This document shows, piece by piece, positions 24,657-27,600 of a stretch of 64,000 nucleotides of DNA. Position 1 is the stretch's first letter; the number at the start of each line of letters is the position of its first letter. The notes under the pieces are model-generated. The model made no database searches and was not told the DNA's origin. It saw only the letters and a program-made list of their open reading frames with translations. The stretch comes from an uncultured Acidobacteriota bacterium (GTDB lineage Bacteria > Acidobacteriota > Thermoanaerobaculia > Multivoradales > UBA5704): the NCBI GenBank assembly GCA_963732005.1, contig CAVSXT010000005.1:2638631-2702630 (forward strand), given 5' to 3'. The position numbers and the translations under genes are program-made.

Positions 24657-27600
24657 TCAGGAGACCGCTTGGCCGGGATCCGTGGCGGCGGCTGAAGGCG
24701 ACAGGGCGCTGGGTTCGCGAGCCGGCCTGGCGATACTGGCGATACTGGCCGTAAGGGCTCGAATGGCCGCGGTCAGCAGGCGACCGGTGGCCGCCACGTG
24801 CGGCGGGAGGAACATCGACCGGTGGCCGCCGGGGACCCGGTGGATCTCGAGGCCGCCGCGCGCCAGCTTTCTCCAGGTCGCTTCCGGGTGCCCTGCAAGG
24901 CCTTCCGCGGCACGCAGGAAGAGCACGCGGCCACTGTAGGGGCCCGGCTCGTAGAGGTGCAGCGCCCGGCGCTGGCCGTCGATCGCCGCGAGCAGGCGCA
25001 AGAGGTCGGCGCTGCCGTAGGACGCTGGGAGCCCGCCGGCGCGGCGAGCGCGCTCGAGGAGCAGCGCCAGCCGGCTCTCGCCGTCGAGACCCGCCAGCTC
25101 CCGGCCCAGTGTGCGCTCGTCGCCACCGGTCAGCCAGGCCAGGAAAGCCGCCTGCGGGTCGACCTCGTCCGCCGCGGCCGACGCTGCCTGAGCCAGCGGC
25201 TCGCCGGCCCAACTGTCGAGCAGCGCGAGCAGCGCCACCTCCTGGCCTCCGGCGCTCAACTGACGCGCCATCTCGAAGGCGATGCAGCCGCCCATCGAGC
25301 TGCCCGCGAGCAGGTACGGACCCGCGGGCCGCCAGGTCAGCAGCGCCGCGAGATACTGCGCGGCCATCTCTTCGAGCCGTTCCGGCACCGTGCCGCCGGT
25401 CAGAGCTGGCGTCTGGAAGCCGTAGACCGGTTGGTCCGGCCCCAGCTCCCGCGCCAGATGGCGGTAGATCTGGACGTCGCCGAAGACCGGATGGATCAAC
25501 ACCAGCGGCGGGCGCCTGCCGTCCCCCGGCTGCAAGCCCACCAGGTTCGCGGGCAGCGGCGCGCTCGCCTCCCGCCGGGCGAGCGCGATGCCCAGCGCCG
25601 ACGCGGTCTCCCTGGTCGGCTCGCCGAGCGCCGCCTCCGCCGCCGGGCCCCAGGAGCGCTCTCCCACCCCGGCGTCCACCCGGCGGTGAGAGTGAAACTT
25701 GACGTCGCCCAGCATCCGCGACTGGGCGTGGATGCCGTCGATCATCCTGCCCGGCCGCGACTCGTAAGGCCGCGCCATGGCAGGCTCGTAGGCCAGGCCG
25801 AGGAAGGCGCACACCGCGGCCAGCACCCGCCCCGGTTCGCGCACCAGCTGCTCGAAGGCGACGGTGTGCCAGCGCTCCGGCGGCACCTCGCCCCGCAGCT
25901 CCAGGATGTTCTGGTGCGCCACCGTCCAGGACAGCTCTGCCAGCTCCCGACGGGTGAACGGATGGCCAGCGCCGAAGAAGCCGAAGAAGATCTGGTCCAG
26001 CTTCGCCTCTTCGAAGGAGCGGATGGTGGCGCAGGGGTGGCGGACCAGGTGGAGGTAGTGAGGGCCCGCGAAGTCCTCCTCCGCCCGCCTCAGCGCCTGG
26101 CGGTCCCAGGCGTAGGTCGGCGTCTTGTCCACCAGCAGCCGCTCGCCGAGGTCTTGCTGCAACAGGCCGTAGAAGCGGCGCGTGCTCCAGCCGGCGTCCT
26201 CGCAGCCGGCGATCAGGCCGAGGGCCTCGGTCGCCGCGCAGCCGCGGCTCTCCATCAGCGCCCGCACCGCACCTTCCCGGCGGAAGGCGTCCCTGCCGGC
26301 GAGCGCCCGCCGCCGCTCGGCGAGCGTCCGGTACGACAGCAGCTCGAGCTCCGGCGGCGCGAACAGCCGCGAGTGGCCGGCCAGCATCACCCGCAGCAGG
26401 GTCGAGCCCGACCGCGGCGGCGACAGCACGAAGACCGCCGGCGGGTTCCGCTCGCCGGCCACTTCCGGGGCTGGCTCCGGCCGCATCACCCGGGCGCCGA
26501 GCAGCTGGCGCAGCCGCGCGACCTTGGCGCCGTCGACGCGGCCCGCGGCCTCCTGCTCGCTGGCGGCGGCGGCGGCGCCGTTGCCGCCCTCGCCGCCCTC
26601 TCCGCCCCACAGCCTGGCCACCGCCCGCGGGTGCTCGGCGCCGAGGTGCGCCGCCAGGCCGGCGATCGTCGGCGCGTCGAACAGCGTCACCACGTGCACG
26701 ATCTCTCCCAGCTTCTCCTGCAGCCGGTAGATCAGCATCGCGCCGCTCAGCGAGTTGCCACCCAGGGCGAAGAAGTTGTCCTCGATGCCGAAGCTGCCAG
26801 CGGGCAGCGCGTCGCGCCAGAGATCGGCCAGGTAGCGCTCGAGCGGCGTCCGCGGCAGCACCAGCTCGCTCTGCGCCGTGCCGCTTGCCGCCGGCTCGGG
26901 CAGCGCCCGGCGATCGATCTTGCCGCTCGGCGTCAGCGGCAGCGCCGGCAGCTCCACCCAGGCGCTCGGCAGCATGTGCTCGGGCAGGCTCGCCGCCAGC
27001 CACCGCCGTAGCTCGCCGCGCTCCACCGCCGACCCCGGCCGCGGCACCACGTAGGCCACCAGCTGGGCCGCCGCGCCCGAGCCCCGCGCCACCACCACCG
27101 CCGCGGCCACCGTTTGGTGCCGGGCGAGTCGCGCCTCGATCTCGCCCAGCTCGATGCGGAACCCCCGGATCTTGACCTGGTGGTCGATGCGGCCCAGGAA
27201 CTCGATCGCCCCGTTCGGCAGGTACCGCGCCAGGTCCCCCGTCCGGTAGAGCCGGCCACCCCCCGGCGGGGCCCCCGGCGCTGACGCGCCGCCCCCACCG
27301 CTCGCAGGATCGGGGACGAACCGCTCGGCCGTCAGGCCGGGCCGCCGCAGGTAGCCGCGGGCCGGCTGCACGCCGCCAATGTAGAGCTCGCCGGGCACCC
27401 CCGCCGGCACCGGCTGCAACGCGGCATCCAACAGCTGGATGGTGGTGTTGGCGATCGGCCTGCCGATCGGCACGCCGCCCTGCCCGCGGTCCGGGTCCGA
27501 CGCCCCTGCCGCGCGGCGCCGCGCGGCAGGCAGGCACTCCCAGGCGGTCACGTCCACCGCCGCCTCGGTCGGACCGTAGAGGTTGTACAGCGGCACCGCC

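Follow-up and report, generated by a model that had tools for sequence, protein, structure and literature searches.

To our knowledge, sulfotransferase (ST) domains inside nonribosomal peptide synthetases (NRPSs) are known only from a few glycerate-loading modules of cyanobacteria, and in polyketide synthases (PKSs) they serve as the alkene-forming device of the curacin and olefin pathways. The cyanobacterial examples are loading modules of the type FkbH-peptidyl carrier protein (PCP)-ST, found in OciA (cyanopeptolin 1138/oscillapeptin E), DysB (dysinosins) and AerB (suomilide, varlaxin), where an ST working in cis adds a sulfate that the final product retains (PMC2533009, PMC6520454, PMC10143770); a passage of the olefin synthase (OLS) paper names the oci genes as ST-containing homologues (PMC11730487). 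In the sulfazecin system SulN/SulM, the C-terminal 2,3-diaminopropionate (Dap) of the PCP-bound peptide is N-sulfonated in trans before a beta-lactam-forming thioesterase (TE) acts, and one figure legend of that paper, on predicted monobactam clusters, contains an 'S' domain (PMC11298585). The locus described here lies in a 64,000-nucleotide stretch (the window; positions 2,638,631 to 2,702,630 of contig CAVSXT010000005.1, assembly GCA_963732005.1) from an uncultured bacterium of the Acidobacteriota, and consists of a large NRPS gene whose sixth and last module ends in a PCP, an ST and a TE.

An earlier note, made from the sequence of the window alone, had taken this terminus for a CurM-type ST-TE offloading didomain without a known precedent in an NRPS-only context. 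The claim of novelty is weakened by the three cyanobacterial systems and, as far as that single legend goes, by the 'S' domain of the predicted monobactam clusters. The best-supported reading of the locus is instead that the ST is an in-line, in-cis tailoring domain of module 6, predicted to modify a side chain. By analogy it would work most like the FkbH-PCP-ST modules, with amino-acid modules taking the place of glycerate loading: as in OciA, DysB and AerB, the carrier protein of a hydroxylated unit has the ST attached immediately after it within an NRPS. Those proteins, however, bear the ST in a loading module that receives glycerate by way of FkbH, whereas the window and hundreds of relatives bear it in normal condensation (C)-adenylation (A)-PCP modules for elongation or termination. 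They are also cyanobacterial, while the present family belongs to Acidobacteriota, Chloroflexota and others; the two groups are set apart on these grounds. In our literature search, NRPSs with an ST after a Ser, Thr or Tyr module were nowhere described. The sequences point to a large, apparently undescribed family of CurM-type STs behind ordinary amino-acid NRPS modules.

Architecture of the terminal module

Motif scanning and Pfam gave the domain order ACP0-C1-A1-PCP1-C2-A2-PCP2-C3-A3-PCP3-C4-A4-PCP4-C5-A5-PCP5-C6-A6-PCP6-ST-TE, where ACP is an acyl carrier protein, and found no epimerisation, methyltransferase, ketosynthase (KS), acyltransferase (AT) or ketoreductase (KR) domain in the NRPS. 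Apart from the N-terminal ACP0, the protein is therefore made of C, A, PCP, ST and TE domains only, in agreement with the purely nonribosomal assembly line described before. Within the last 847 residues Pfam places, in order, PP-binding (E 3e-11), Sulfotransfer_3 (PF13469, E 3.8e-26, over the whole model, 1-216/216) and Thioesterase (PF00975, E 4e-29), followed by the stop codon; scores of this order lie well outside anything expected by chance. A linker of ~60 residues joins PCP6 to the ST, and the layout of a PCP followed by an ST recurs in all relatives examined. The order PCP6 (FFALGGNSL), ST, TE and all motifs quoted in the earlier note, GSSMGG included, were recovered by translation and Pfam; the range 24657-26560 assigned to the unit covers the ST and TE, and PCP6, at about 26643-26834, falls outside it.

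Among sequences of known structure the ST is closest to the ST of CurM (4gbm, E 3e-60) and to that of an olefin synthase (4gox, E 3.5e-52), the next-best matches being tyrosylprotein sulfotransferases at only about 1e-6, and its structural alignment with the CurM domain gives 37% identity and a TM score of 0.91. In an alignment of 95 NRPS-embedded STs with CurM and OLS, the residues P38, R39, S40, G41, T43, Glu60, Asp132-Lys133, Arg161-His162 and Ser169 (CurM numbering) are invariant. The roles of Glu60 (the proposed catalytic base), His62 and Lys133 in CurM are reportedly those assigned by McCarthy et al. in 2012. Judged from these alignments, the domain is a true sulfotransferase of the CurM/OLS family, in which the loop binding 3'-phosphoadenosine-5'-phosphosulfate (PAPS) and the equivalents of Glu60 and Lys133 are intact, so that the assignment of the ST as CurM-type was upheld. 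The NRPS-embedded domains nevertheless differ from CurM/OLS in a uniform manner. The position of CurM His62 is occupied by Glu (Glu7126 in the window) in 98% of them, giving PPELEL versus PPELHL in CurM/OLS, and besides His62 at least 8 positions are uniformly distinct, among them Arg172 to Glu, Lys177 to Gln, Gly180 to Phe, and Pro267/Asn268/Leu270 to Val/Lys/His. Such substitutions are consistent with an acceptor pocket of another kind.

The likeness to the ACP-ST-TE termini of CurM and OLS thus includes a homologous ST with a common PAPS loop, Glu60 and Lys133, its location with a carrier protein on one side and a TE on the other, and a substrate hydroxyl beta to the thioester. It does not extend to the module upstream, which is C-A-PCP and not KS-AT-KR-ACP, nor to the TE. 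The catalytic Ser-Asp-His residues of the latter stand at the canonical type-I positions, and its top sequence matches are the Skyxy-type NRPS TE (7crn, E 3.2e-23) and the AB3403 termination module (4zxh, E 1.4e-20), followed by the TEs of EntF, Pks13, FAS, NocB and Vlm2; with structure taken into account the leading matches are again AB3403, 7crn, EntF, Pks13, NocB and Vlm2, and the CurM TE appeared in none of its sequence or fold match lists. The decarboxylating CurM TE (PDB 3QIT) is said to possess a Ser-His-Glu triad and a sulfate-binding Arg in its lid. When 19 TEs that follow an ST were compared with 7 that do not, all conserved columns proved common to both and the two sets interleaved in a distance tree, the loci being related. 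By these comparisons the TE of the window is an ordinary PF00975 NRPS thioesterase and not of the CurM-TE kind.

One residue of the TE may be mentioned separately. Arg7420 (25461-25463, in IYRHL, after the conserved Tyr of the N-terminal helix of the TE) has a counterpart in 16 of the 19 TEs behind an ST and in 1 of the 7 others, or in only about 8/11 versus 1/7 when independent groups are counted. The residue may contact the sulfate, or the pattern may be an artefact of phylogeny; it is a weak hint only.

These features bear directly on a CurM-like release, in which the TE would hydrolyse the O-sulfoseryl thioester and decarboxylative elimination of sulfate would leave a C-terminal N-vinyl amide (enamide). 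Such a course is suggested by the order PCP-ST-TE, the same as ACP-ST-TE in CurM and OLS, and by the position of the seryl hydroxyl beta to the thioester carbonyl. It is made highly improbable by a TE that departs from the CurM TE both in sequence and in fold ranking, and whose Ser-Asp-His arrangement is standard and common to TEs without an ST; by the appearance of ST-TE adjacency in many separate ST subclades whenever the ST module is last; and by the larger share of STs that precede C domains. Since the type of TE, the obligate pairing of ST and TE within the NRPS subfamily and the upstream PKS module all fail, the PCP-ST-TE unit is, to judge from its sequence, not a CurM offloading tridomain, and the offloading didomain of the earlier note gives way before a generic type-I TE, a result that the note itself had set against its proposal. 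The shift of -46 Da that it predicted for decarboxylation plus dehydration must also be corrected, to -62 Da (CO2 + H2O).

The residue offered to the ST was deduced from Stachelhaus codes, for which each A domain was aligned to GrsA-PheA. The code of A6, DVWHVSLVDK, is the classical Ser pattern, in keeping with the reading by eye given previously, and is identical in the four closest orthologues (L001-L004). A1 (DVWHMSLVDK) and A2 (DVWHLSLVEK) are likewise Ser-like, and A3 reads DALFLGAITK. A4 (about 33700-35200; DVWFMSLVEK) has a Ser-like code with His changed to Phe and varies among close orthologues (DVWHMSLVEK in L001, DVWFPGLVEK in L003). The A5 code (about 30300-31800), DVVNVGRVSK, recurs across the NRPS family, and we know of no code that matches it. 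Published Dap codes of the SulM type are DVWEMNADDK and DIWEITADDK (Table S3, PMC11298585), from which the A6 code is clearly distinct.

Sulfotransferase-bearing modules in related synthetases

A protein search with the ST yielded, among the candidates scored, 543 proteins at E<=1e-20, many of them fragments joining PF13469 with Condensation, AMP-binding_C or PF00975, and species-representative genomes, scanned with the ST alignment, contained at least 581 encoding loci; 78 of these were retained for analysis. Nearly all hosts of these loci are metagenome-assembled genomes (MAGs) of Acidobacteriota (Thermoanaerobaculia, Holophagales, Pyrinomonadaceae), with a few Chloroflexota. The orthologues L001-L004 carry STs 91-95% identical to that of the window in the same arrangement of A5, A6, ST and TE, which makes a relative of the Thermoanaerobaculia the most probable source of the window.

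The A domains that precede an ST in the 78 loci are strongly biased in their codes. Ser or Thr was read in 61 of 72 (29 Ser and 32 Thr), and 4-5 more of the 72 are Tyr-coded (4 of them DASTVAAVCK), as against 14 of 78 Ser/Thr codes among A domains of the same loci without a following ST (Fisher odds ratio 25, p 7e-17, the sampled loci being related MAG sequences, so that p-values overstate their independence). Moreover, 3 of those 14 apparent exceptions were ST modules that the motif pattern had overlooked. The coupling is nevertheless large, and is seen across Ser, Thr and Tyr modules. The ST distance tree conforms to it, with STs grouping by the code of their own module into Ser groups, Thr groups, a tight Tyr group and a trio with the code DGFTHGEVWK. 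It does not conform to the downstream partner: TE and C partners are scattered over the tree, and ST-TE adjacency occurs in many subclades. Where the domain after the ST could be resolved (about 65 loci), C was the next domain in about 50 and TE in about 14. A single synthetase can have as many as three STs, and one Tyr module was verified by Pfam as A-PCP-ST-C. Not every Ser module of a synthetase has an ST, as in locus L011 and in the window itself, where A6 is followed by one and A1 and A2 are not. In three loci from Pyrinomonadaceae MAGs (L034, L060, L073) the ST belongs to an ST-TE termination module with the A code DGFTHGE[VI]WK, and these STs cluster together.

The picture was extended with a profile, some flanking columns included, that was run against 1.84 billion cluster representatives (50% identity). 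It gave 1,639 matches at E<=1e-30; the best 150 of these are mostly megasynthases of 1,000-7,000 residues, and codes and neighbouring domains were read in 148 of the best 150. In these representatives the codes before an ST include Thr 22 times, Ser 17 times and Tyr 8 times, that is, 47 of 93 compared with 12 of 62 elsewhere (p 9e-5); 7 are of Dap type, and several appear by eye to be Tyr/Hpg-like (Hpg, 4-hydroxyphenylglycine) or Orn/Lys-like. The ST is followed by C in 73 and by TE in 42. With C domains in the majority in both samples, the view of the ST-TE pair as a release unit could not be maintained. Because the ST tracks the code of its own module and does not form an obligate pair with the TE, it would belong to the Ser module and not to the release step, and adjoins the TE here because module 6 happens to be the last.

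The modules with SulM-type Dap codes (DIWEITADDK and variants) and an ST in cis occur in P0143, P0160, P0192, P0209, P0215, P0219 and P0230, and the ST is followed by a TE with a Ser nucleophile in P0143 and P0160 and by a C domain in P0192, P0209 and P0215. The window resembles the SulN/SulM system in that a peptide on a PCP is proposed to be sulfonated at its C-terminal residue directly before the TE, but in sulfazecin a free-standing protein provides the ST and the TE has a Cys, in contrast to the cis ST and the Ser-nucleophile TE or C domain of these Dap modules. SulM-type termination is defined by a Dap-specific last A domain and a TE with Gln-Cys-Asn and with Asp at position II (PMC11298585). 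For the window, beta-lactam termination of this type was ruled out by the Ser code of A6 and the motifs of the TE. The precedent of SulN/SulM, where a PCP-bound residue is sulfonated just before a TE, and the existence of Dap modules with in-cis STs in the same family also bring to mind a more general role of sulfate as leaving group for an intramolecular substitution or cyclisation to an aziridine, azetidine, beta-lactam, ether or thioether, comparable to sulfation-dependent aziridine formation or to the order of sulfonation and TE action in sulfazecin; with A6 coded for Ser and not Dap, and no obvious partner nucleophile encoded, this is scarcely to be expected here.

By their codes, the modules of the family are mainly Ser and Thr modules with some Tyr and Dap, and its hosts are mostly uncultured Acidobacteriota. 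Its named members are a Thalassomonas strain, a Magnetococcales bacterium and a Puniceicoccaceae bacterium, the others being MAGs, and we know of no product for any of them. The Thalassomonas protein (P0126, WP_281560967.1, from the named strain Thalassomonas sp. RHCl1) is organised as C-A-PCP-ST-C-A-PCP-ST-C-A-PCP-PCP-TE. The names noted for the source proteins are only 'amino acid adenylation domain-containing protein' or 'non-ribosomal peptide synthetase', with no mention of an ST. Very many stand-alone proteins of ~430 residues carry an ST of the same family as well (for example P0049, P0056, P0096, P0120), some of them with the Joint Genome Institute (JGI) name 'acyl carrier protein' or a PP-binding Pfam match; named hosts are Burkholderiales (Burkholderiaceae, Rubrivivax) and Cyanobacteriota, and we are aware of no function described for them.

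Predicted reaction and fate of the sulfate

In the reaction proposed here, A6 would load L-serine onto PCP6, and the ST fused behind this carrier would use PAPS to O-sulfonate the side-chain hydroxyl of the thioester-bound Ser, which at that point would most likely already be the C-terminal residue of the hexapeptidyl chain. The ordinary Ser-Asp-His TE would then take the sulfated chain and release it by hydrolysis or macrocyclisation, to give a product that retains a C-terminal O-sulfoserine. That the ST sulfonates the Ser of its own module on PCP6 we consider quite probable; the fuller claim, that it does so and that the sulfate is kept in the released product, appears to us evenly poised. 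The sequences show which domains are present and in what order, an intact catalytic core of the ST, the Ser code of A6 and, throughout the family, a coupling of the ST to modules for residues with a nucleophilic side chain; the substrate hydroxyl, the timing at the peptidyl rather than the aminoacyl stage and the retention of the sulfate are what we infer. As to timing, no C domain adapted on its acceptor side was found in the ST modules: the C domains of Ser modules that have an ST are intermingled with those of Ser modules that lack one, and this fits weakly with sulfonation after condensation.

The ST might act on another hydroxyl of the chain bound to PCP6, either that of a glycerate- or hydroxymalonate-derived cap supplied through FkbH or that of Ser1, Ser2 or residue 4. 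The cluster does contain an FkbH cassette and an N-terminal ACP0-C1, and all characterised NRPS STs act on glycerate derived from FkbH. In those systems, however, the ST directly follows the PCP that bears the glycerate, whereas here it follows PCP6, with ACP0 and ST 23 kb apart in the gene; and throughout the family the ST goes with the specificity of the module to which it belongs, as does its grouping by sequence, which makes action at a distant residue improbable.

Retention of the sulfate by the predicted O-sulfoserine is favoured on several grounds. The same ST family follows Tyr modules, where beta-elimination is chemically impossible, and its more distant members stand behind Hpg-like and Dap modules, where such a reaction cannot be what the ST is for. 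Between the ST and the C or TE that follows, the sequence leaves no space for a lyase domain; C domains behind an ST have the usual motifs and form no deep clade of their own; TEs with and without a preceding ST are of one kind; and the characterised PCP-ST systems (OciA, DysB, AerB) all keep the sulfate.

The same observations weigh on the principal alternative, sulfonation followed by elimination, in which the ST would activate the beta-hydroxyl of Ser6 and the sulfate would leave, spontaneously or with the aid of the TE or the next C domain, to give dehydroalanine (Dha), or Dha and dehydrobutyrine (Dhb) at internal positions in the relatives. It is prompted by the origin of the ST in the 'activating' family of CurM and OLS, by the strong bias of its close relatives towards the beta-hydroxy residues Ser and Thr, and by established chemistry, in that a domain acting in cis at the thioester stage meets the alpha-proton at its most acidic. 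Dha and Dhb are, besides, common in nonribosomal peptides, and O-sulfo-Ser and O-sulfo-Thr rare. On the other side, a lyase-type domain is absent, and the beta-sulfated acyl-ACP of CurM is stable until its TE acts. In each of the leaving-group dehydrations of which we know (LanL/LanKC, LanB, the CurM TE), elimination has a catalyst dedicated to it. We also looked behind the ST for a C domain specialised in dehydration; the C domains there showed no HHH or odd motifs, an ordinary HHxxxDGWS and no separate deep clade; their sole signal, a nearest-neighbour enrichment of 46/66 against a background of 31%, is explained by orthology. A likeness to the dehydration of Ser and Thr in peptides made on the ribosome and then modified post-translationally (RiPPs), by LanB glutamylation or LanL/LanKC phosphorylation, and to that by dehydrating NRPS C domains would exist only if elimination were true, and these systems differ from the present one, in which there is no elimination domain and the C domains after the ST have no special motif or clade. 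Elimination at Ser6 is in our view rather unlikely, and the wider proposal of a PAPS-dependent sulfonation-elimination in NRPS modules, leading to Dha/Dhb or, here, to a decarboxylated enamide C-terminus, is to be held as tentative at most. In our judgement retention of the sulfate is likelier than elimination to Dha, and a decarboxylative enamide is unlikely; of the C-termini suggested in the earlier note, the O-sulfoseryl and dehydroalanyl forms accordingly still stand as candidates, the enamide hardly.

Several points speak against an in-line tailoring ST that leaves its sulfate in place, in addition to the relatedness of the sampled loci mentioned above. The family was first described as 'activating' sulfotransferases, and a beta-sulfate on an N-acyl-seryl thioester would be chemically primed for elimination. 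In the ST of the window CurM His62 is exchanged for Glu, which may affect the reaction. The A-domain codes derive from our own alignment and not from a trained predictor, and roughly half of the codes read before an ST in the broader sample fall outside Ser, Thr and Tyr, several of them being unassignable. In the Thalassomonas synthetase the code before both STs is DIPRVGHVGK, which is Asp-like; the acceptor there could be beta-hydroxy-Asp. Finally, no member of the ST subfamily has a product known to us.

Gene cluster setting and significance

The features of the window are compiled in Table 1. The NRPS region has a G+C content of 75%, and the gene contains two in-frame 9-bp tandem repeats, one (47554-47656, 11.4 copies) encoding an N-terminal (PAN)n and the other (46063-46119, 6.3 copies) a (GAI)n within the first C domain. 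Residues 1-600 of the protein (about 45900-47720, minus strand) begin with the ACP (LGLDSL) and continue with a C domain of unusual motif, HHIVVDFWS.

Table 1. Positions in the window of the NRPS, its terminal domains and residues, and neighbouring genes
Feature	Position	Strand	Basis
NRPS gene, 7,687 aa	24657..47720	-	ORF list, motif scan, Pfam on overlapping pieces
A6 adenylation domain, aa ~6433-6934	26919..28424	-	Pfam AMP-binding + AMP-binding_C
PCP6, aa 6963-7026	26643..26834	-	PF00550, E 3e-11
PCP6 phosphopantetheine Ser6990 in FFALGGNSL	26751-26753	-	
ST domain, aa ~7085-7378, CurM/OLS family	25587..26468	-	
PAPS 5'-phosphosulfate-binding loop PPRSGST, aa 7101-7107 (Arg7103 = CurM Arg39)	26400..26420	-	
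Glu7124, equivalent of CurM Glu60 (proposed catalytic base)	26349..26351	-	
Lys7199 in LLVDKTP, equivalent of CurM Lys133	26124..26126	-	
TE domain, aa ~7400-7650, ordinary type-I NRPS thioesterase	24771..25523	-	PF00975
TE Ser7475 (GSSMGG)	25296-25298	-	
TE Asp7502 (LLDSW)	25215-25217	-	
TE His7633 (GGHRSM)	24822-24824	-	
SAM-dependent methyltransferase, divergent from NRPS	47725..48825	+	PF08241, E 1.2e-24
Peptidase_S74 (endosialidase chaperone) protein, 463 aa, between NRPS and amine oxidase	49691-51082	-	
Flavin amine oxidase	51122-52570		
FkbH / 3-hydroxyacyl-CoA dehydrogenase / ACP / acyl-CoA dehydrogenase cassette	53438..56945	+	Pfam; TIGR01686
SnoaL-like cyclase-family protein	13277-13765	+	
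SnoaL-like cyclase-family protein	59677-60261	-	
Relaxase/TraI-like helicase	2214-4775	-	
Primase-like AAA_25 protein	5969-8128	+	
RadC	11311-11988	-	
DDE transposase	20786-22414	+	

The FkbH member of the four-part cassette scores 253.7 bits against the model TIGR01686 (cut-off 146.65). Cassettes of this composition are of the hydroxymalonyl/methoxymalonyl-ACP type. The cassette probably supplies a glycerate-derived acyl unit to ACP0-C1, and is part of the cluster and not of the ST mechanism. No KS or AT was found within the window. Taken with the ACP0-C1 that opens the NRPS, this suggests that the peptide has an N-cap derived from glycerate or hydroxymalonate and condensed by a C domain and not by a KS. 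The methyltransferase, dependent on S-adenosylmethionine (SAM), is a possible member of the cluster, and SnoaL-like proteins are encoded one on each side of it. The flank downstream of the NRPS (2214-22414) is mobile-element DNA, and the G+C content falls to 0.63-0.67 at 10-24 kb, compared with 0.75 in the NRPS.

The interest of the locus lies in in-line ST modules that predict sulfated (or dehydrated) peptides in uncultured phyla, rather than in an exotic release chemistry. If the sulfate is kept, the family would represent a hidden class of sulfated, in part polysulfated, nonribosomal peptides, with a simple rule for the positions of their sulfates; if it leaves, a new route to dehydroamino acids. 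Should elimination prove true, sulfonation would join phosphorylation and glutamylation as the third chemistry that activates residues on the way to dehydroamino acids, and one widespread in uncultured Acidobacteriota. The ST would serve engineering as a portable tailoring domain acting in cis, and Thalassomonas sp. RHCl1, if cultivable, would offer an experimental entry point to this family.

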